Assembly: GCA_963643715.1 (NCBI GenBank)
Contig: CAVILQ010000009.1
Location: forward strand, 4,520 to 68,519
Source: a bacterium
GTDB lineage: Bacteria; Bacillota_I; Bacilli_A; RFN20; CAG-288
Direction of reading: 5' to 3'
Length of the DNA stretch: 64,000 nucleotides
The notes below the pieces were generated by a model. The model was not told the DNA's origin, searched no databases, and saw nothing but the letters and a program-made list of their open reading frames with translations. Positions within the stretch are counted from its first letter, which is position 1; each line of letters begins with the position of its first letter. Positions 4,441 through 14,735 of this stretch are shown piece after piece. A program made the translations under genes and the position numbers.

Positions 4441-5832
4441 TTATTTTTTGATTTTCCCTAAAACGATATCATCTGCCAAAAGGAAAGTCATATAAAGAGG
4501 AACTGTCAAAATATCATTTTCTTCATTGTAGCCGAGTTGATTCGAAGAAATCTTGATTGCTGTTGTTCTCTTATTATGTTCACGAAAATCCTTCAATGAA
4601 TTCAGGAATCTTTTGCCTTTCTTAACATCAATCGGGCAAATATCTCCATTGATATCAACAATGAATTCAAACTCATGCTGTTGTTTTCCTGTCCAATAAT
4701 AAAGTGGTATTCCTTTTGACACGAACTCATCAGCGACATACGATTCATAAAAGACACCAGAAAGCTCGTTTCTGCTATCTTTTGAAAGAAATGACGACTG
4801 AAGTATATTGCTCTCCTTTGCAAACAGTCCACAATCAGAAAGATACAATCGAAACAGTCCGCTTTCGTCTTCCATTAAAGGCGAAGTGACCTTGCCTTCC
4901 TTTCGTTTGCTTCGATATATGACATGGGCCAAATCCAACCATTCATATGCCCCAAAATAATCTCGGTTTGATTTTCCTCTTTCTATAGAGGCTATTTTGA
5001 AATTCTTATTTTCCTTATTCAGTTGAGCAAATATGTTCTTATAGATATTTCTTGTTTTTAGAATCATCTCATCTGAGATGTTATATAGACTCATATCAGC
5101 AATATAGTTCTCATACAATTCATTCAGAATCTCTTTTGCTTCCACATAGGAATGATTTTTCAAAAAGGAATCTACAACTTCAGGAAGTCCTCCGATGCAA
5201 AGGAATTCATGAAGCAGATCAAGAGCTAAATCATGCTCATACTTCTCTAATGGTTTATTTCTATCGTAATAGGCTTCTTTGATTCTAGTAAGCAATGGTT
5301 TATTCACGTTGAGAAGATATTCCTCAAATCCCATTGGATACATCGATAATGAATTTATCTTTCCAACTGGAAACATTACATTATCCCCACCATTCCTACA
5401 AGCACGCTGTAAAGCGAGTCGAACCATAGATCCTGTAATAATGACTGGTAATTCAGGATGGTCCTGATTGAAATACTTCAAAGACGTTAGAACATTAGGA
5501 ACCGTTTGTGCTTCATCAATGATAAGTGGGCATTCTTCAGAAATGACTTTCCCATAATTGCTCTCAATAAAACGAAGATATTTTTCATCATCTACAGTCT
5601 CGCTAAAATACTCGGCTGCTCTTTGATCCTTTTTCAAATCAATGTAAACATAATCCTTTGTAAAGTTCTTAGCAAACATCTCTTTGACAAGATATGTCTT
5701 CCCGGTTTGACGAGCTCCCCATATAACAAGAGGTTTTCGTCTATCTTTTTTCTGATACCATGCTAGTATTTTACTCAAATATATACGTTCCATAAACCAT
5801 GCCTCTCTATATGAATTATAATTGAAATTCAT
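4441..5832 (-). CDS. AAA+ superfamily ATPase (COG1373-like, Walker A GARQTGKT with DUF4143-type C-terminal half)
   Basis: GARQTGKT Walker A and IIDEAQ Walker B-like motifs; 463 aa. Confidence 0.7.
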   Translation of the reverse strand: MNFNYNSYREAWFMERIYLSKILAWYQKKDRRKPLVIWGARQTGKTYLVKEMFAKNFTKDYVYIDLKKDQRAAEYFSETVDDEKYLRFIESNYGKVISEECPLIIDEAQTVPNVLTSLKYFNQDHPELPVIITGSMVRLALQRACRNGGDNVMFPVGKINSLSMYPMGFEEYLLNVNKPLLTRIKEAYYDRNKPLEKYEHDLALDLLHEFLCIGGLPEVVDSFLKNHSYVEAKEILNELYENYIADMSLYNISDEMILKTRNIYKNIFAQLNKENKNFKIASIERGKSNRDYFGAYEWLDLAHVIYRSKRKEGKVTSPLMEDESGLFRLYLSDCGLFAKESNILQSSFLSKDSRNELSGVFYESYVADEFVSKGIPLYYWTGKQQHEFEFIVDINGDICPIDVKKGKRFLNSLKDFREHNKRTTAIKISSNQLGYNEENDILTVPLYMTFLLADDIVLGKIKK

Positions 5833-5889
5833 CCAAATACAAGTTTTTCATGTTTTTAGAAGTATCCAAATACAAGTTTTTCATGTTTT
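5831..5889. repeat. 33-bp tandem direct duplication (atccaaatacaagtttttcatgtttt x2)
   Basis: An identical 26-mer occurs at 5831-5856 and 5864-5889. It overlaps the first codon of the ATPase gene and its upstream region. Confidence 0.8.
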
Positions 5890-6068
5890 ACGATGTTTTT
5901 TGCTCCACTGAATATAAAAAGGATGAGGAAGTCTTTCTCAGGCGCTCCTCATCCAAACGATCTTTTGACTTTATACGAGAGTTGTCAACAATTATGTGTA
6001 ACGACTAATGCTGTCAATGACTTCATTCTCATCTTCTCTTCCTTCTTGACCGACATGTCGGTCAAGAA

Positions 6069-6503
6069 CTACGCCGCCAGGGCGAATCCCATCCAGGTCC
6101 TCTCGTCCTCGGTCATTTCGCCGTAGTTTCGTATCCTTCTCTGCTTCCTCTCGTACTTCACGATGGTTCCTGCCATCGTGATGATTCCGTTCGCCTCGGA
6201 ATTGATAAGTCTTCTCTTCCTCGTGTCCGTCTTTATCATCGAGTTGAAGCTCTCGATCTGATTCGACGTGTACAGAGACGTCCTAAGGCATCTCGGAAAT
6301 CCGAGGTATGTGTCAAGGCCGTCCGTCTCCAGGAGCAGGCGCATCCTTCGCGGATACGATTTTTGCCATCTGCTGACGAATTCGGCAAGCCTTCCCTGGA
6401 ACGCCTCCTGAATCCTTTCTCTGACAACCTCATTGAACTCACAGACGATTTCTTTGTGGATTTCCTCTGGGTCGGAATCCAGATAATGTGCTAAAATGTT
6501 CAT
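6069..6503 (-). pseudogene. IS256-family (Mutator-type) transposase, C-terminal fragment only
   Basis: YTSNQIESFNSMIKTDTRKRR matches the IS256 C-terminal YTTN.IES.N signature. Only about 144 aa are present, against about 400 aa for an intact IS256-family transposase. GC is clearly higher than in the flanking DNA. Confidence 0.65.
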
Positions 6504-6557
6504 GGCGCAATCCTTTCGTGTTTAAGTGATCATTAACATTATAAAGGGTCGCGCCTT

Positions 6558-6591
6558 TTCTGTGTCTGAATTCCGGAATTCAGACACAGAA
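6558..6591. repeat. perfect 34-bp palindrome ttctgtgtctgaattcc|ggaattcagacacagaa
   Basis: Read directly; centred on GAATTCCGGAATTC, about 55 bp from the transposase-fragment start. Confidence 0.9.
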
Positions 6592-6763
6592 GCCATTACA
6601 CATAAATTAGTCTACTCTCTATTTGTTGCCTTTCTTTCCTTATAATCACACTTTTTTTCAAACACATCCGGTTCTAACGTCGGTTAAAAAACATTACGCA
6701 ATTAAAATGGCACCTATATTACGAATCATAGGTGCCATCAAACTTAAGAGTTTAATCTTTACT

Positions 6764-8767
6764 TTACGCTTTTACTAACTCACGTTGTTTCAGATAATCA
6801 ATGATCATCTGAGCTGATTTTTCTTTTCCGATAGATGAATCGATGCAAAGATCATAATGATGCTGATCGTTCCAGGATAAAGATGTGATGCTCTGGTAGT
6901 AATTTGATCTAGCTTTATCAGACTGTTTCATCATCTTCTTTGCTTCTTCGTAGCTGTCATTATACATTTCCATGATATTTTTGATCTTAACCTCTTCAGA
7001 TGCATAGATAAAGATAGAAACGACGTTTGGATTATCTCTTAAGACATAATCAGCTGCCCTACCGACAATGACACAGCTTCCTTGTTTTGCAATAGAGAGC
7101 AAAACCTCTTTTTGTGCTTCAATCGACTGTGCCTCTGGGCTCTTGCTTAAATAAAGATTTGAAGGAACACCCTGTTTCAAAGCGTTAGTATTAGAAAGGA
7201 ACTTCTCCGTCAATCCGCTCTTTTCCGCAGCTAATGAGAGCAATTCCTTAGAATAGAACGGAATATTCAATGTCTTTGCTACAATCTCACCAATACCTTT
7301 TCCCTGTGATCCATGCTCACGGGAAATAGTCAGAATAACACCAGGATGAGATTCCTGTATCTCAACCGTCTCAACTGGAGTGATATCCTCTTTTCCTAAT
7401 TCCTTAAATAGGATAAAGGTGAAAGTCAAAGCAATCAAGAAAGCTAAAACGTCCGCAATCATCGGAGCATAAAGAAGAGCAACAATACCAGAACCAGTCT
7501 CATTCTTTTCACTGATCAAAGGAAGAATCATGACAGCAGGGACAAAAAACAGGATATCACGTGCCAGAGAGGCAATCGTTGCTTTGATTGCTTTTCCACA
7601 GGCTTGGAAGAAGATAGAGGACATCTTAATAAAACATGTCAACATCGTAGTCGCCAAGAAAAGACGGAAGACAAGTCTTCCATATTCCATATATAGAGCG
7701 TCATCTTTCGCACCGAATATAGCAATAATTCCATCTGGCCAGATTTCGAATAAAAGTGTAGCAATAAAGGAGAGACCGATTGTCCACATAAGAATGAGGA
7801 AATAAAGATGGCGTACTCTCTTTATCTTTCCGGCTCCGATATTGTATCCGATGATAGGGAGGCCACCTAAGACAATACCGACAACGATATTAAGAACGAC
7901 AGTAAATACCTTTGTCTCAATCGATGTGATTGCGATCGGAATATCCTGACCAAATTTGGATTGGTTACCATATTTCACTAGCATTGTATTGCCGACAAGG
8001 TTGACAACAACAATAGAAATCTGAGTGATGAAAGAAGAGACACCTAACATAAATGGCTCTTTAAATCCAATGATATCTGGAATAAACGACTTCAAATTGA
8101 GTCGGAAGGTTTTTGAACGGAAGAAGTAAGCTGCACCAACTAAGAAAGAAACGACCTGACCAATGACAGTGGCCCAGGCAGCCCCTTCAATTCCCCAATC
8201 ACAGACATAGATAAAGATAGGATCCAATATGATATTCAGAATAGCACCTACTCCAGTAGAAAGCATTGCATATAGTGGAGAACCATCACTTCGAATGACT
8301 CCATTCATCATATTCTGGAGCATGTAGAACGGAAAGAAGAAGGCAACGATTCTCAAGTAGGATTTGGCAAGAGACAAGGAATTGTCACTCGCTCCACAGA
8401 ACCTTAGAATCGGTTCAGCAAAGACAAGGCTGAACAGGATGATAAGGAAAGAGGAAAGAAGGGTAAGCACTATACCTGTACCGATTGCCTTGTTCGCTTT
8501 CTCCTGTTCTTTTCTTCCTTGACAGATACTTAAGAAGGCAGCACATCCATCACCAAAGCACCAAGCAAAAGCCTGTGTGACAACAAGAATAGGAAAGACA
8601 GCGCCTGTTGCCGCATTTCCTAAATATCCTAAGGATGAGTTCCCGACAAAGATCTGATCTACGATATTGTATAAAGAAGAAATCAGCAAGGATGCAACAC
8701 AGGGAATTGAAAACTTCAATAGGAGTTTTCCAATCTTCTCTGTTCCTAAATATTTGTTTTCGTCCAT
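6764..8767 (-). CDS. MATE-family efflux transporter fused in-frame to a C-terminal cytidylate-kinase-like (NMP-kinase fold) domain
   Basis: N-terminal 12-TM MATE region (KLLLKFSIPCVASLL...), then a P-loop-like EHGSQGKGIGEIVAKTLNIPFY cytidylate_kin2-type domain. The start was chosen at MDENKY, which has a GGAGGAG ribosome-binding site; the ORF track extends 34 codons further upstream. Confidence 0.6.
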   Translation of the reverse strand: MDENKYLGTEKIGKLLLKFSIPCVASLLISSLYNIVDQIFVGNSSLGYLGNAATGAVFPILVVTQAFAWCFGDGCAAFLSICQGRKEQEKANKAIGTGIVLTLLSSFLIILFSLVFAEPILRFCGASDNSLSLAKSYLRIVAFFFPFYMLQNMMNGVIRSDGSPLYAMLSTGVGAILNIILDPIFIYVCDWGIEGAAWATVIGQVVSFLVGAAYFFRSKTFRLNLKSFIPDIIGFKEPFMLGVSSFITQISIVVVNLVGNTMLVKYGNQSKFGQDIPIAITSIETKVFTVVLNIVVGIVLGGLPIIGYNIGAGKIKRVRHLYFLILMWTIGLSFIATLLFEIWPDGIIAIFGAKDDALYMEYGRLVFRLFLATTMLTCFIKMSSIFFQACGKAIKATIASLARDILFFVPAVMILPLISEKNETGSGIVALLYAPMIADVLAFLIALTFTFILFKELGKEDITPVETVEIQESHPGVILTISREHGSQGKGIGEIVAKTLNIPFYSKELLSLAAEKSGLTEKFLSNTNALKQGVPSNLYLSKSPEAQSIEAQKEVLLSIAKQGSCVIVGRAADYVLRDNPNVVSIFIYASEEVKIKNIMEMYNDSYEEAKKMMKQSDKARSNYYQSITSLSWNDQHHYDLCIDSSIGKEKSAQMIIDYLKQRELVKA

Positions 8768-8900
8768 AACAGTTCTCCTCCAACAGGCAATAAAAAAGGC
8801 ATCTTTTCTGATGACATAAGTATCATACCAAAGAGATGCCTGATTAAAAAGATTTCGTATCGAAATCAAGAGATAACTATATAAGATATATCATCTAATC

Positions 8901-9605
8901 TTATTTACTCAGCAGTTCCATTGCTTCCTTGTCACAGTAGACAGTGACATTGTCATGTCTATTCAAGATAGAGGCAGGGCAAGAGATATCCGGATTCTCA
9001 AACATAGCCTTTACTGCTTTTGCTTTATTTTTTCCAAAGGCAAGGAGAACAATCTCTTTTGCTTCCATAATGGTAGATAATCCCATTGTGACAGCCTTTG
9101 TCGGAACATCATCGATAGAAGCAAAGAATCTTGAATTATCTTTGATGGTCTCCTCTTTTAAATCTGCAATATGCGTCTTGCTGTCAAAGGGTGTGCCAGG
9201 TTCATTGAATGCGATATGTCCATCACTGCCAATGCCTAAAATCTGAAAATCAATGCCACCCGCCTTTCTGATTTTCTCATCATAAGAGGAGGGATCATTC
9301 TCCGGTGGGAAATTCGTGTTTTCTTTCTTGATATCGATAAAATCGAAAAGATGAGAATCCATGAAATATCGATACGACTGTGAAAAGTCATTATTGTTCA
9401 CATATTCATCGAGATTGAAGGTGGTAACATCAGAGAAAGAGACTCCTCTTTCCTTGCTTCCTTTGATGATTTCGTTATAGCTTTCAATTGGGGTTGAACC
9501 CGTTGCCAATCCTAAGACACAATTCGGTTTCTTCACCACTAAGGTTAAGATTCTATTTGCAACATCCTTAGCAACTTCTTCCTTTGTCATACAGACTAAT
9601 TTCAT
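8901..9605 (-). CDS. nagB: glucosamine-6-phosphate deaminase
   Basis: GLATGSTP and FNLDEY motifs; 234 aa. Confidence 0.85.
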   Translation of the reverse strand: MKLVCMTKEEVAKDVANRILTLVVKKPNCVLGLATGSTPIESYNEIIKGSKERGVSFSDVTTFNLDEYVNNNDFSQSYRYFMDSHLFDFIDIKKENTNFPPENDPSSYDEKIRKAGGIDFQILGIGSDGHIAFNEPGTPFDSKTHIADLKEETIKDNSRFFASIDDVPTKAVTMGLSTIMEAKEIVLLAFGKNKAKAVKAMFENPDISCPASILNRHDNVTVYCDKEAMELLSK

Positions 9606-9611
9606 AAAGCT

Positions 9612-10763
9612 TTATTCTCCTTTTCTATATACACATTCACCGTGGACGAACGTCTGATACACATTCACATTCTCATCTAAGACTACAAAGTTCGCTTCTT
9701 TCCCTACTTTGATAGATCCTAATCTGTCATCTACCTTTAAGTTTCTAGCTGGATTGATTGTTGCCATATCGATGGCATCCGTTAAGGATATGGAAAAGAC
9801 ATCCTTTGCGTTTCTGATAGCATCATTCATCTTCAGAATAGATCCTGCCAAAGTTCCATCAATGAGTCTAGCCGTTCCATCTTTGACATAGACTGGATTT
9901 CCACCTAACTCATATTGACCATCCTCAAGATACTTTGCTTCCATGCTATCCGTAATCAGTGTGATATGATCTTTCCCTTTCAATCGATAAAGCACGTCTG
10001 CTGATTCTTTTGAGACATGATGAAGATCGAGAATCAGTTCACAACAGACACGGTCATCTAGCATCAAAGCCCCGACAGTACCAGCCTCTCGATGGTGGAA
10101 TCCTCTCATTGCATTATAAGTATGAGTCGTAAGCCTGACACCTTTGTCAAATGCCTCTTTCGCTTCCTTATATGTATCATCTGTATGCCCTAATGACAAT
10201 GTAATATTATTTTTCTTAGCTAACTCGATGAAATCATCGTTTCCACTCTTATAAGAGAACGTCATCTCTTTGATTGTATTTCCAGATGCTTTAATGAATT
10301 CATTCAATGCATTCGCATCTAAATCAAGAATATCATCAATGTTCTGAGCACCAGAATATGATTTTGAAATAAAAGGGCCTTCAAGATGAACACCTAAAGC
10401 CTGAGAGCATCTTTTCCTTTGTCTAGGAAGATAATCGCGTATTATGTTTAATGCAGATAGAATTCTCTCTTTTTTCATCGTCATCGTCGTATAGAGGAAG
10501 GATGTTGTTCCTTCCATCAAGATAGATTCAGCAATCTTCTTAAGACTCTCTTCCTTAGAATCCATTGCATCAGCACCATTCGCACCATGAGTATGTTCAT
10601 CAATGAATCCAGGAGAAACAATCAGTTTCTCAGGAAGAGTGATACTATCTTCATCATCGATATCATCTGAGATTTCTTTGATGATTCCATTCTCTATTTT
10701 CAAAGAGGTTCTGATGATGCCTTTTCCTTCTACATAAATATTTGAATCCCGTATGACTGACAT
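9612..10763 (-). CDS. nagA: N-acetylglucosamine-6-phosphate deacetylase
   Basis: GFIDEHTHG metal-binding motif; 383 aa; lies directly upstream of nagB. Confidence 0.85.
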   Translation of the reverse strand: MSVIRDSNIYVEGKGIIRTSLKIENGIIKEISDDIDDEDSITLPEKLIVSPGFIDEHTHGANGADAMDSKEESLKKIAESILMEGTTSFLYTTMTMKKERILSALNIIRDYLPRQRKRCSQALGVHLEGPFISKSYSGAQNIDDILDLDANALNEFIKASGNTIKEMTFSYKSGNDDFIELAKKNNITLSLGHTDDTYKEAKEAFDKGVRLTTHTYNAMRGFHHREAGTVGALMLDDRVCCELILDLHHVSKESADVLYRLKGKDHITLITDSMEAKYLEDGQYELGGNPVYVKDGTARLIDGTLAGSILKMNDAIRNAKDVFSISLTDAIDMATINPARNLKVDDRLGSIKVGKEANFVVLDENVNVYQTFVHGECVYRKGE

Positions 10764-10855
10764 AAGAGCCTCCTATTTTTTTACTTTGTAAAATAATTAT
10801 ACCACAATTCTTTTTGATTATGGTAGAATCTTAACAGAAAGTCGAGGATTTACGC

Positions 10856-12268
10856 ATGATTCAGTTTGGAACTGGCGGTTTCAGAGGAGTGATTGCTGAT
10901 GATTTTACCAAGTCTAATGTTCAATTGATTGCACAGGGCATCAGCAATATCTATAACGAGAGAAAATATAAGAAACCGATTTTGATCGGATATGATTTCC
11001 GCTTTTGTTCAAAAGAGGCATCCGAATGGATTGCGGAAGTATTAGCCGGAAATCATATTCCAGTTCTACTATCCAATGAACCTTCTCCAACTCCAGCCAT
11101 CATGCAGCAGAGTAAAATCATGGATAATGAATTCGGAATCATGATTACTGCCAGTCATAATCCTTATTGGTTCAATGGCGTAAAGTTATTCCAAAATGAG
11201 GGAATGGATGCTGAAAAGAAACTGACCGATGAACTAGAAAATAGAATAGAAGAAGTAAAGGAAGTTCATAAAGTTTCTATTGATGATGCTATTCAAAACG
11301 GAAAGATACAATATGTCTCTGTCTTGAAACCATATCTAGAATATATCCAGAGATTCCTCCTGATCGATCAGAACAAAAAAGACACAAAGATCCTGATTGA
11401 TCCTATCTATGGAACCGGTCTTCTCACTTTAAAACCAACATTTGAAGAGATGGGATTTGAAAACATCAAGGTCATCCACGATGAACACAATCCTCTATTT
11501 GGTGGGCTTCTTCCGAACCCGATTGAAAAGAATATGCTTGCCGACAAGGAAATTGTCCTAAAGGATCATTACGATATCTGCATCGGAACAGACTCTGACT
11601 GTGACCGTCTTTCCATATTGGATGAGAAAGGTAACTTCGTCGATGCCAATGAAATCTTAGCTTCCATCTATTACTATCTCATCAAATACAGGCATGAAAA
11701 AGGAGACATCGTCAAGAACCTTGCAACGAGCAATCTAGTCGATGCAGTTGCTAAGAAATTTGGATATAAGTGCCATGAAGTTGATGTTGGATTTAAAAAC
11801 ATCTCTTCTGGAATTAAAGAATATGATGCACTCTTAGGTGGCGAAAGCTCCGGTGGACTCACAATGCGTGGATACATCTATGGAAAAGACTCTACATTCG
11901 CATCTGCTCTATTCTTAGAGATGGTATCGAATATGAAGAAACCTGTATCAGAGATCATCAAGGAGGTAAGAGAATTCGCACAGTTTAATAAGGTATCCTA
12001 CGAAGATAGTATCCGTTTCAAAGATAGAGAAAGAATTATGGATGCCTGCGTCAAGGACTTTCCACACTTCTCAGAAAAGAAATTCATCTTCAAAAAGATT
12101 ACGAATAACTTTAAATACTATTTCCCTTCCGGTGACTGGGCATTGATCCGCTTTTCAGGGACGGAACCATTGATACGAATATTCATCGAAAGCGATAAGA
12201 AGAAAGATGTCTGCTTAAAAGATATTGAAGCCATCAAGGCTTTCATCAGAAAACATGACAGCAACTGA
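10856..12268 (+). CDS. alpha-D-phosphohexomutase family protein (phosphoglucomutase / phospho-N-acetylglucosamine mutase-like)
   Basis: TASHNP active-site serine loop and a GGESSGG sugar-binding loop; 470 aa. Confidence 0.75.
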   Translation: MIQFGTGGFRGVIADDFTKSNVQLIAQGISNIYNERKYKKPILIGYDFRFCSKEASEWIAEVLAGNHIPVLLSNEPSPTPAIMQQSKIMDNEFGIMITASHNPYWFNGVKLFQNEGMDAEKKLTDELENRIEEVKEVHKVSIDDAIQNGKIQYVSVLKPYLEYIQRFLLIDQNKKDTKILIDPIYGTGLLTLKPTFEEMGFENIKVIHDEHNPLFGGLLPNPIEKNMLADKEIVLKDHYDICIGTDSDCDRLSILDEKGNFVDANEILASIYYYLIKYRHEKGDIVKNLATSNLVDAVAKKFGYKCHEVDVGFKNISSGIKEYDALLGGESSGGLTMRGYIYGKDSTFASALFLEMVSNMKKPVSEIIKEVREFAQFNKVSYEDSIRFKDRERIMDACVKDFPHFSEKKFIFKKITNNFKYYFPSGDWALIRFSGTEPLIRIFIESDKKKDVCLKDIEAIKAFIRKHDSN

Positions 12269-12275
12269 GGACAAT

Positions 12276-14735
12276 ATGAACATTTATCAAGAACTTCTCA
12301 ACAATTTCTCTTCATTAAAAGAGAAAGCCGACAAAGAAAAGAATCATTACCTTTTTTGGAATAATGGTATCTTTTTAACCAATGACAAAAGAAGCGATGC
12401 CCGTTACCCGTATGTCAAAGACGGAATGGTATTATGGGCACACAATAACGGAAAGATTCATCTCAGTGAATCTGATTTCTTTATTCTTCCGGAAACAGTA
12501 GAAGGAGAAACTTCCTTCCTTTCCTTTTTCTTAGGAATCAAAAAGAAAGATCAGTATCTTCCTATTTCACTCTTTGAGTTTGATAGGAATGTCTTAGAAG
12601 ATGATGTAGAAAGAGCAACCTTCTTTTCCTATCATTCCGCAACCTATATCCTGCATGCGAACGGAATCTTTTTCTTTGTCACACTGGCATTGAATGAAAA
12701 GAAAGAACTTCTTCTCTATGGCAAAGTCATCAATGATACAAATGAAGAAAAAGATATCTATACCTCTTTATATTTCAATCCTATGCTGATGCATAATAAC
12801 TACTCCAGTGTCGAAACTAAGTGGTTTAAGAAATGTCATATCAAAAACGACTGTTTCCAGTTTGATACAACAGAAGATATCTCAAGGGAAATCCATCTCT
12901 ATCATCATTACAATTTCAAAAGAAACACAGTCAATGTACAGAAAAGTGAGGACACAACATCAAGACTTGTCTATTCGAATTCCAAGACCGGAAACAAGAA
13001 TGCGTCAGATTGTCTTTTAAAAGGAGAATTCTTCGAAGAGAAGAAGACAACCTGTTTTTCTGATACAGCTATTAGTGGAGACTTCTTGAAATCACATCTA
13101 TGTGGAAAAGAATCTTTCTCCTTCTCTTATCAGCTGACAAAGTCAGATGAATTCATGAGTCTGAAAGAGATTGAAGATTATTTCATATCCATTTCAAATG
13201 ATGAAGATGTTTATAATATCTTCTCCTTTGATAAAGGTAGTATTATCGATTCAAAAAAGTTCACTGACTTTTCCAAAATGTTAGTTAAGCAGGTAGATTA
13301 CTGTGCCGGGACGAAAAACAGCACACTTAGAATGCTCGGTTTCCGTGATATCTTCCAGGCGTTAGAGGCTGCAGTCATCTTCAAACCCGAAATGGTGAGA
13401 GAAAAGATATTAGGATGTCTAGACTATGTCTCCACAACAGGAAGATGTCCAAGGCAGTTTGCCTGGTCTGAAGGAAAGGATGTCCGCATCGATTCTAGGG
13501 AATTCATCGATCAGGGACTTTGGGTCATTGACTGCATCTATCAATACCTATCTTATACGGATGATTATTCCCTTCTTTCTGAGAAGAGAAGATATATCGA
13601 GATTCACGATGATTCCTCTGCCTGTTTTTCAGATAGAGCAGATGATGTCTTATCTCACTTAAAGCAGATGCTGAGTTATCTGATTGACAACATCGACGCA
13701 GATACAGGATGTCTAAAGACACTCTACGGAGACTGGAATGACGCTATCGATGGATTAGGAAAAACAGAGAACGGCATCGGTTTTGGTAATGGTGTCTCCA
13801 TCATGGCTACCTTCCAACTCTATTCTGCATTAAATAAATCCATCGAGATATTCAACAAAATAGGTGGACAGGAAGATTGGATTACAAAGGCAGAGAGAGC
13901 AAAGTCTCTTATTGAAGAGGGACTTCTCCATCACGCCTTTGTAACAAAAGGAAACGAAACCAAAATCATCCATGGCTGGGGAAACAATCGTTCCTTTTAT
14001 GTTGGTTCCTTCTTTGATATCGATCAGATGGAAAGAGACACACTGACTTCTAACGCCTTCTATGTCTTAAGCGGATTTTATCGTTCTCATCCAGAATATA
14101 TCAATGCGGTTTTCACGGCATATGAGAAATTAGAAGGGAAATACGGATTCAAAACCTTTGAGCCTTACTTTGACAAGGATGCCTATCAAGTAGGAAGAAT
14201 TGTTAATCTTCCTAAAGGCACTGCAGAAAATGCAGCAACCTATATCCATGGAAGTGTATTCGCTTTAGATTCTCTCTTCCTACTGAACAAACCCAAGATG
14301 GCGTGGGATGAGATAGAGAAACTCATTCCTATCACACATGAATTCATCTCTACTACTCCCTTTGTCATGCCAAATAGTTATGTCTACAATCCAGAATTAG
14401 GATGTGATGGAGAAAGCATGAATGACTGGTTCACAGGAAGTTCTTCTACCTTATTCAAATCACTAGTCCGTAACGCATTTGGATTTGACCCTCATCTTGA
14501 TCAGCTTGTTCTTAATCCTGCAGACTATTTCCCGTTTGAAGAAGCAGATATGACTATCACTTTCCGAAACAAGCTAATTCATCTACACCACATCCAAAAA
14601 GGAAAAGAAAGAAATATTCTCCTTAATGGAAAAGAATTGAATCTTTTAGACGAAGAAAACGGATTGAGAAAAAAGATTGCAACCATCCCCTATACGGACT
14701 TAGAAGAAGAGAATACAATCGTCATATCAGACTAA
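12276..14735 (+). CDS. GH94-family glycoside phosphorylase (chitobiose / cellobiose / laminaribiose phosphorylase family)
   Basis: YGDWNDAIDGLG...VSIMATFQLY lines up with the GH94 catalytic-Asp DWND motif of chitobiose phosphorylase. NAFYVLSG and ENAATYIHG match further GH94 blocks. Start set at 12276, downstream of the mutase stop. Confidence 0.6.
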   Translation: MNIYQELLNNFSSLKEKADKEKNHYLFWNNGIFLTNDKRSDARYPYVKDGMVLWAHNNGKIHLSESDFFILPETVEGETSFLSFFLGIKKKDQYLPISLFEFDRNVLEDDVERATFFSYHSATYILHANGIFFFVTLALNEKKELLLYGKVINDTNEEKDIYTSLYFNPMLMHNNYSSVETKWFKKCHIKNDCFQFDTTEDISREIHLYHHYNFKRNTVNVQKSEDTTSRLVYSNSKTGNKNASDCLLKGEFFEEKKTTCFSDTAISGDFLKSHLCGKESFSFSYQLTKSDEFMSLKEIEDYFISISNDEDVYNIFSFDKGSIIDSKKFTDFSKMLVKQVDYCAGTKNSTLRMLGFRDIFQALEAAVIFKPEMVREKILGCLDYVSTTGRCPRQFAWSEGKDVRIDSREFIDQGLWVIDCIYQYLSYTDDYSLLSEKRRYIEIHDDSSACFSDRADDVLSHLKQMLSYLIDNIDADTGCLKTLYGDWNDAIDGLGKTENGIGFGNGVSIMATFQLYSALNKSIEIFNKIGGQEDWITKAERAKSLIEEGLLHHAFVTKGNETKIIHGWGNNRSFYVGSFFDIDQMERDTLTSNAFYVLSGFYRSHPEYINAVFTAYEKLEGKYGFKTFEPYFDKDAYQVGRIVNLPKGTAENAATYIHGSVFALDSLFLLNKPKMAWDEIEKLIPITHEFISTTPFVMPNSYVYNPELGCDGESMNDWFTGSSSTLFKSLVRNAFGFDPHLDQLVLNPADYFPFEEADMTITFRNKLIHLHHIQKGKERNILLNGKELNLLDEENGLRKKIATIPYTDLEEENTIVISD

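Follow-up and report, generated by a model that had tools for sequence, protein, structure and literature searches.

Organization of the gene

The window analysed here is the full 64-kb stretch of DNA taken from contig CAVILQ010000009.1 (GenBank assembly GCA_963643715.1) of a bacterium of the CAG-288 lineage. On its minus strand it encodes a single protein of 667 amino acids (aa), in which a MATE efflux transporter is joined to a cytidylate-kinase-like domain of the Pfam family PF13189. The open reading frame (ORF) runs in the ORF list from stop to stop at 6764..8869, which gives 701 aa when counted from a TTG codon. The ATG at 8767, from which the 667-aa product extends to a TAA stop at 6764-6766, is the likely start, rather than the TTG at 8869, because it is preceded by a Shine-Dalgarno sequence and homologues begin at the same methionine (MDENK/MENTK). 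Neither the sequence nor the ORF list contains a stop or a change of frame between the MATE and the kinase-like parts. The gene and its parts are arranged as listed below; L- and P-numbers are used further on as labels of compared loci and proteins.

6764..8767, minus strand: complete coding sequence of the fused protein, 667 aa and TAA (ORF list, sequence, both Pfam domains in one frame)
8775..8781, minus strand: Shine-Dalgarno sequence GGAGGAG, 7 nt upstream of the ATG at 8767 (read from the sequence)
7400..8767, minus strand: MATE transporter module, aa 1-456, with twelve predicted transmembrane helices (two PF01554 matches, TIGR00797)
7337..7399, minus strand: linker, aa 457-477 (ELGKEDITPVETVEIQESHPG), predicted coil, poorly conserved in the alignment consensus
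6767..7336, minus strand: PF13189 cytidylate-kinase-like domain, aa 478-667, with an alpha/beta fold like that of nucleoside monophosphate (NMP) kinases (Pfam E 1.1e-46)
7295..7321, minus strand: R483-E-H-G-S-Q-G-K-G491, an atypical motif resembling a P-loop and located between strand 1 and helix 1 (sequence, comparison with E. coli Cmk by hhalign)
7049..7063, minus strand: invariant motif G569-R570-A-A-D573 (G and R invariant in 49 fused and stand-alone domains)

The last transmembrane helix (TM) extends to about aa 456, and aa 478 is the first residue of the kinase-like domain. An initial annotation of this DNA had described an in-frame fusion of a complete MATE transporter with a cytidylate-kinase-like domain, and this is confirmed by the single ORF and by the domain search it had proposed, in which Pfam finds MatE (PF01554) and Cytidylate_kin2 (PF13189) in one protein. 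The peptide EHGSQGKGIGEIVAKTLNIPFY quoted there corresponds to aa 484-505 (window 7253-7318). The junction needs correction, as the position given for it (7480-7560) encodes aa 403-430, within TM11-TM12, and the linker really lies at ~7337-7399. No second MATE or PF13189 copy is found elsewhere in the 64-kb window.

The N-terminal MATE transporter

The MatE family (PF01554) is recognized in two stretches (E 6.6e-37, 127 bits against a cut-off of 24.9), and the NCBIfam model TIGR00797 (matE) covers aa 22-419 with 166.8 bits (cut-off 147.4). The full-length AlphaFold model contains twelve long helices; its predicted local distance difference test (pLDDT) score is 82, with values of mostly 80-95 in the helices. 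Foldseek matched this part to PfMATE (E 2e-15), DinF-BH, VcmN, ClbM and NorM, with target-normalised template modelling scores (TM-scores) of 0.7-0.84. The best solved relative is DinF-BH of Bacillus halodurans (4lz6/5c6n), which aligns over its full length (4lz6: E 4e-45 over aa 3-449; 29% identity in the Foldseek alignment), while PfMATE, ClbM and VcmN are weaker matches. Twelve helices, two MatE repeats and a TM1 aspartate in YN(I/V)VD(Q/T)IF are shared with DinF-BH and PfMATE (3vvn/6fhz).

This aspartate is D37, which is shared by all 46 homologues compared; its surroundings, YNIVDQIF, correspond to YNVVDTIF in the alignment with DinF-BH. In DinF/PfMATE-type pumps, the acidic residue of TM1 takes part in cation/proton coupling. 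The N-terminal part is a DinF-type 12-helix MATE transporter, and it looks functional, judging from the full-length match to DinF-BH and the invariant TM1 aspartate. The substrate-specific NCBIfam equivalogs (VmrA-like NF007130, MepA, FepA) all scored far under their cut-offs. The solved MATE transporters that were matched differ from the window protein in having 440-500 residues, and none of them matched its 200-residue C-terminal region.

The C-terminal kinase-like domain

The PF13189 match extends over aa 478-645 and over profile positions 1-175 of 176, with 159.7 bits against a gathering score of 28. The sequence matches in the PDB are the stand-alone proteins 3hdt of Clostridium symbiosum (E 8e-26) and 3fdi of Eubacterium ventriosum (E 6e-23). 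Together with the Pfam match, they place the tail in the same family as the ~200-aa stand-alone proteins of Firmicutes, as the initial annotation had supposed. A model of the domain alone (pLDDT 88.5) has the same two structures at the top of the Foldseek results (target-normalised TM-score 0.88, root-mean-square deviation 2.7-2.8 Å, identity 30-31%), followed by cytidine monophosphate (CMP), shikimate, adenylate and gluconate kinases with TM-scores of 0.5-0.64 and identities of 11-16%. When the PDB was searched with a profile of 49 kinase-like domains, only 3hdt and 3fdi were significant, and no characterised protein appeared below an E value of 0.2. Both are structural-genomics deposits without assigned function, named "putative kinase" (3hdt) and "uncharacterized protein" (3fdi).

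In the alignment of the fused clade, R483, H485, G486 and G489 of the P-loop-like motif are invariant and K490 is at least 90% conserved. The lysine is present in 114 of 115 fused homologues; in the stand-alone proteins, this position is mostly R, but also H, S, A or Y. Five residues (R483, G486, G489, G569 and R570) are invariant across the 49 fused and stand-alone domains, and D573, R620, Y624 and W632 are nearly so. G569-R570 stands opposite GRDMG of E. coli Cmk in hhalign, in an alignment of low confidence. Since the invariant residues make up the ligand site of the NMP-kinase fold, binding of a phosphate-bearing ligand is plausible. The stand-alone members share the invariant R...G..G and GR motifs, and their nearest representatives are 37-44% identical to the tail. 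They differ in being soluble proteins of ~200 aa with the motif R-E-[YF]-G-S-G-G-[RH], whereas the clade of the window protein is transporter-linked and carries R-E-H-G-S-x-G-K.

The (d)CMP kinases, such as E. coli Cmk and 2h92 of S. aureus, have the NMP-kinase fold in common with the tail (Foldseek E 2e-7, TM-score 0.55-0.64), as well as the arrangement of strand 1, P-loop and helix 1 and a GRD sequence to which the GR motif is aligned. They differ from it in sequence (11-16% identity), and hhalign of the tail against E. coli Cmk gives a probability of only 2%. The genuine CMP-kinase model TIGR02173 of NCBIfam reaches 31.3 bits against a cut-off of 102.1, and the bacterial cmk model has no match. 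The Walker A motif is not canonical either: its first glycine is replaced, its basic residue is shifted or varies within the family, and it fits neither GxxxxGK[ST] nor GxxGxGKG[ST]. Because of the low TIGR02173 score, the low hhalign probability and the atypical P-loop, the tail is not regarded as a CMP kinase. The assignment as a genuine (d)CMP kinase (EC 2.7.4.25) is contradicted by the TIGR02173 score and the non-canonical Walker A motif. Judging from the motifs, canonical catalysis by the tail is doubtful.

Integrity of the fusion

Full-length copies of 667-671 aa are found in at least ten separate NCBI, ENA and Logan assemblies, in the 90%-identity cluster around a 98%-identical protein, and two NCBI assemblies have the same protein in the same nagA-nagB context. 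Reference genomes were surveyed with one genome per GTDB species; 584 stretches encode relatives, and the best 80 loci were classified. An intact fused ORF is present in 62 of these 80, down to 39% identity, and L013 is one further fusion once a natural stop is allowed for. The others are MATE-only (14 loci), frame-shifted (L054 and L055) or interrupted by an in-frame stop at codon 80 (L034). In one Logan contig, the fusion is split into pieces of 548 and 69 aa (P0131 and P0129). These interrupted copies may be pseudogenes or assembly errors. A frameshift or stop in related genomes, which the initial annotation had named as the finding that would speak against a fusion, is confined to a few scattered copies.

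When the window gene is compared with L002 (dS 0.28-0.51), the ratio of nonsynonymous to synonymous substitutions (dN/dS) is 0.034 in the MATE half and 0.055 in the kinase-like half, which indicates strong purifying selection on both.

Two adjacent genes could in principle have been merged by a sequencing or assembly error, or the contig could be chimeric. The interrupted relatives can be cited for this, and so can the metagenomic locus L115, which has both parts as separate genes with a single in-frame stop between them and a second gene with its own ATG. Against it stand the recurrence of the same architecture and length in independent assemblies of one 90% cluster, the 62 intact fusions of the species representatives, the purifying selection on both halves and, at the junction itself, the lack of a start codon or ribosome-binding site for the kinase-like part. 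An artefact has a negligible probability and is already effectively refuted. The fusion is genuine, old and selected.

Distribution of the architecture

In a collection of 5.8 billion proteins, 118 of the 120 best matches have a length of 656-689 aa and both Pfam domains, at 52-98% identity. Such proteins are named in NCBI either "MATE family efflux transporter" or "cytidylate kinase family protein", and named fused homologues come from Lachnospiraceae, Pseudoflavonifractor, Lachnoclostridium pacaense, Emergencia and Candidatus Enterosoma. The architecture had initially been called unusual. This cannot be maintained with 118 of 120 best matches fused, 62 of 80 species loci intact and NCBI annotations in place: the MATE-PF13189 fusion is widespread in gut Clostridia and Bacilli and already in the databases. 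The window gene is an ordinary member of a MATE::PF13189 family that is intact in dozens of gut Firmicutes species.

An exhaustive search with the PF13189 domain among 1.84 billion representatives at 50% identity gave 7,240 matches (E up to 1e-3), and the 149 nearest that could be classified were used for a census of architectures. They comprise 93 stand-alone proteins of ~200 aa, at least 32 MATE-linked proteins (13 full length and 19 partial ORFs), three fusions to DUF6198/YitT-like membrane proteins and one tandem duplicate. The DUF6198/YitT-like proteins are multi-pass membrane proteins of ~430-450 aa with PF13189 at their C-terminus (P0237, P0240 and P0299, as well as L155 at 5239-6591). 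The tandem PF13189-PF13189 protein, P0268, has 394 aa.

A neighbour-joining tree of the transporter halves was built without bootstrap; the identity values agree with its grouping. It shows two fused subclades, one with R-x-H-G-S-x-G-K, which includes the window protein, and one with R-E-Y-G-S-G-G-R-Y. MATE-only proteins are nested at least five times within the fused clade. The nearest relatives of the window protein below 80% identity include such MATE-only proteins: its MATE half is 75% identical to P0101/L001 and 66-68% identical to L041-L043, as against only 52-59% for most fused relatives. The flanks of the 14 MATE-only reference loci contain no kinase-like gene. The simplest reading of these relationships would be that the fusion is ancestral and that the tail was later lost several times.

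Homologues with 44-68% identity also occur in genome bins labelled Muribaculaceae, Bacteroides, Saccharibacteria, Hallerella, Treponema, Fusobacteriaceae and Spirochaetia (L011, L024, L027, L031, L034, L041, L042, L048, L049 and L052). These labels outside the Firmicutes point either to genes transferred horizontally from Firmicutes or to contaminated bins.

Neighbours of the stand-alone genes

The initial annotation had also proposed a survey of the fused architecture against the two as adjacent separate genes. The neighbours were inspected at 80 metagenomic loci found with the stand-alone PF13189 profile, which include one MATE fusion (L117) and one DUF6198 fusion (L155). The outcome is that the fused form is common and that an adjacent MATE gene on the same strand is present in 5 of these 80 loci. 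Both gene orders are seen, with the kinase-like gene first in L090, L110 and L133 and the MATE gene first in L115 and L135. In L115 (4516-6588), a single stop codon separates the MATE gene from a PF13189 gene in the same frame, which has a new ATG five codons further on. Such an arrangement may represent a fusion that is naturally split, or one that was recently broken by a nonsense mutation.

Among the immediate neighbours, an RluD-like pseudouridine synthase is the commonest (16 of 80) and MATE is second. The stand-alone PF13189 gene lies directly downstream of the RluD-like gene in L099, L101, L109, L116, L120, L122, L123 and L126, and the same arrangement is found in L139, L145, L150, L151, L156, L159, L160 and L161. 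A D-aminoacyl-tRNA deacylase-like gene lies downstream of the stand-alone PF13189 gene at five of the 80 loci, three of which belong to these 16. The RluD and D-aminoacyl-tRNA deacylase contexts are of a housekeeping type, unrelated to transport. About 1% of the genes in such genomes are assumed to be MATE genes; under this assumed rate, which is not a matched background, 5-6 MATE-adjacent cases per 80 would be several-fold above expectation.

Genomic context in the window

A spacer of 133 nt separates the fused gene from nagB, which lies upstream on the same strand, as does nagA. Divergent from nagB and nagA are genes for a PGM-like mutase and a GH94 phosphorylase. The domains found (Glucosamine_iso, Amidohydro_1, PGM_PMM and GH94) confirm these identities. 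Together, nagB, nagA, the mutase and the GH94 gene (window 8901-14735) look like a cluster for chitobiose or N-acetylglucosamine utilisation. As listed, the GH94 ORF begins with the TTG at 12225 and shares 44 nt with the mutase ORF, so that the true start of the gene is probably further downstream. Three hairpins flank the fused gene:

8851..8867, minus strand: terminator-like hairpin with a T-run, just after the nagB stop (consensus scan, RNA fold)
8792..8840, minus strand: second hairpin (GGCAUCUC...AGAUGCC), then UUUUUU (RNA fold of the 133-nt spacer, z = -2.4)
6701..6738, minus strand: strong hairpin, 26 nt beyond the stop codon, with a U-run (RNA fold with -20.4 kcal/mol and z = -3.9)

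The second spacer hairpin ends ~10 nt before the Shine-Dalgarno sequence and could be an attenuator rather than a plain terminator. L002 and L003 have almost the same 133-nt spacer, which L004 lacks. The hairpin after the stop codon is likely a transcription terminator; none of 200 shuffled sequences was as stable. An Rfam scan of 6400-9100, with E values up to 1, found no riboswitch or leader family.

The location directly downstream of nagAB, which the initial annotation had pointed out, is real as an adjacency, but it is conserved only in L002 and L003. The order nagA-nagB-fusion recurs only in these two relatives, both 98% identical. At the 80 reference-genome loci, no NagA or NagB homologue stands beside the gene, and this includes the closest of them, L004 (80% identity). 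Clustering of the ORFs within 4 kb at the 80 loci found only generic ABC ATPases (at 12 loci) and MATE paralogues (at 9) to recur, and since no specific neighbour family recurs, operon-based inference was dropped for the fused form. The gene could be imagined to serve its neighbours in N-acetylglucosamine catabolism (nagA, nagB, PGM-like mutase, GH94), for example by exporting a by-product. Its short distance to nagB on the same strand, the gene order shared by two relatives and the confirmed domains of the neighbours would fit such a role. It is nevertheless very improbable, in view of the missing NagA and NagB homologues, the lack of any recurring family beyond those two, and the two terminator-like hairpins toward nagB with the strong one after the stop codon. 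A functional link to nagAB is rejected, as the synteny found at 98% identity is gone at 80%. From the spacer hairpins, the hairpin after the stop codon and the absence of recurring neighbours, the gene appears to be transcribed as a unit of its own, and nothing about its function can be read from the nagAB neighbourhood.

On the other side of the fused gene, a fragment of 144 aa of a Mutator/IS256-family transposase is encoded on the minus strand at 6069-6503, just downstream. It covers only profile positions 257-358 of 379, and its GC content is 0.50, compared with ~0.37 around it. The next gene, also on the minus strand (4441-5832), codes for an ATPase with AAA_14 and DUF4143 domains. In L002, the corresponding interval (8281-13579), between the fused gene and a xanthine/uracil permease gene, contains ORFs of 891, 677 and 143 aa instead. 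The interval downstream of the fused gene is a variable and probably insertion-prone spot.

Proposed role of the kinase-like tail

The product is a single polypeptide in which a DinF-type MATE exporter of 12 helices, probably coupled to protons or cations, carries the PF13189 domain at its presumably cytoplasmic C-terminus on a flexible linker of ~20 residues. MATE transporters have an N-in/C-in topology, from which the cytoplasmic location of the tail is inferred. The tail might act as an accessory module whose atypical P-loop and invariant arginines bind a small molecule with a phosphate group, such as a nucleotide. In this way it would modulate the attached transporter or couple metabolism to it, and some MATE pumps may be served likewise in trans by stand-alone PF13189 proteins. 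A regulatory or nucleotide-sensing appendage, as the initial annotation had suggested, appears to be the most plausible reading of the sequence data. It is favoured because of the repeated loss of the domain from close MATE relatives, the fusions to DUF6198/YitT-like proteins and the occasional stand-alone genes next to MATE genes. The accessory cytoplasmic module, with its ligand binding and its effect on the pump both deduced from conserved residues and architecture, is put forward tentatively, with slightly less than even confidence. A wider proposal appears more doubtful, namely that PF13189 is a hitherto unrecognised cytoplasmic sensor domain of secondary transporters. With a nucleotide or an alarmone-like phospho-ligand bound at its atypical P-loop, it would gate the attached MATE pump and also the DUF6198/YitT-type proteins, and the abundant stand-alone copies of gut Firmicutes would act on MATE pumps in trans.

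Cytoplasmic regulatory domains that bind ligands are known from other transporters: CBS domains on OpuA and MgtE, RCK/KTN domains on K+ transporters and STAS domains on SulP proteins. The likeness is one of analogy. In these systems too, a soluble domain of a nucleotide-binding-type fold sits on the cytoplasmic end of a secondary transporter or channel, has free-standing counterparts and can be missing while the transporter stays intact. They differ in that the folds of CBS, RCK and STAS domains are unrelated to PF13189.

Several observations weigh against an accessory, ligand-sensing tail. About 90% of the stand-alone PF13189 genes have no adjacent MATE gene and their commonest neighbour is RluD-like, so the general role of PF13189 may be unrelated to transport. 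The literature searched contains no paper on the MATE-PF13189 fusion or on the function of PF13189, and the searches gave no ligand, binding assay or transport assay for any member; of relevance was only a brief mention in PMC13601570. The fused clade keeps the P-loop Gly-Lys (114 of 115), the CMP-kinase-like GR and the LID-like arginines, which leaves room for catalysis. A docking test of low power, in which MATE positions at least 85% conserved in fused and at most 40% in nested MATE-only proteins were sought, found no fused-specific residues on the cytoplasmic face; all that emerged were two positions in TM2 and one indel, which lies in the periplasmic turn between TM11 and TM12. The packing of the two domains is not reliable in the full-length model (predicted TM-score 0.65), where the linker is disordered, with a pLDDT below 50 for aa 461-467.

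Catalysis would have its place if the tail were an active small-molecule or nucleotide kinase coupled to transport, which phosphorylates, for example, the exported compound or a product delivered by the pump, so that both form a pair for channelling or detoxification. The NMP-kinase fold, with CMP, shikimate, adenylate and gluconate kinases as the next structural neighbours, is in line with this, as are the retained Gly-Lys, the invariant GR and conserved LID-like Arg/Tyr opposite the GRD and LID of CMP kinase in hhalign, and a weak NCBIfam match to archaeal (d)CMP kinase (E 1.8e-7). The score against the CMP-kinase equivalog, however, stays at 31 bits where 102 are demanded, and the PDB profile search reached no characterised kinase. 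The replaced first glycine takes the Walker A motif away from GxxxxGK[ST], and the presence of R, H, S, A or Y at the lysine position of stand-alone members would be unusual for a catalytic P-loop lysine. The domain is also dispensable in many close MATE relatives, and phosphorylated compounds are not typical substrates of MATE transporters, which usually export cationic or lipophilic ones. An active kinase is rated as rather unlikely. A structural module that has no small-molecule ligand and serves dimerisation, folding or stability, or the docking of another protein, is improbable. It would agree with the two chains in each of the 3hdt and 3fdi deposits, with the existence of tandem PF13189 proteins such as P0268 and with the tolerated loss of the domain in several lineages. 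Chain numbers in crystals are a poor guide to the biological assembly, however, and the residues that are invariant from fused to stand-alone proteins are at the P-loop and GR, the ligand site of the fold, and not on a surface patch. The accessory ligand-binding module is the reading retained here.

Significance for the family

To our knowledge, no regulatory domain has been described for a MATE transporter, and the literature searched likewise mentions no cytoplasmic regulatory domain for any of them. Public databases already contain the MATE-PF13189 architecture, with annotation, for hundreds of species, and the present locus is one more copy of it. A 2026 atlas of gut "colonization factors" has the MATE and cytidylate-kinase-like families among its largest and reports PF13189 as transcriptionally over-represented and highly expressed (PMC13601570). 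Both MATE pumps and PF13189 proteins belong to the gene families that have expanded most in gut Firmicutes. The fusion, its DUF6198/YitT-like counterpart and the occasional operon pairing provide a testable hypothesis that links the two families. If true, the sensor reading would give the first described regulatory domain of the MATE family, and this hypothesis at the level of the family would, if shown, be of more interest than the single locus.

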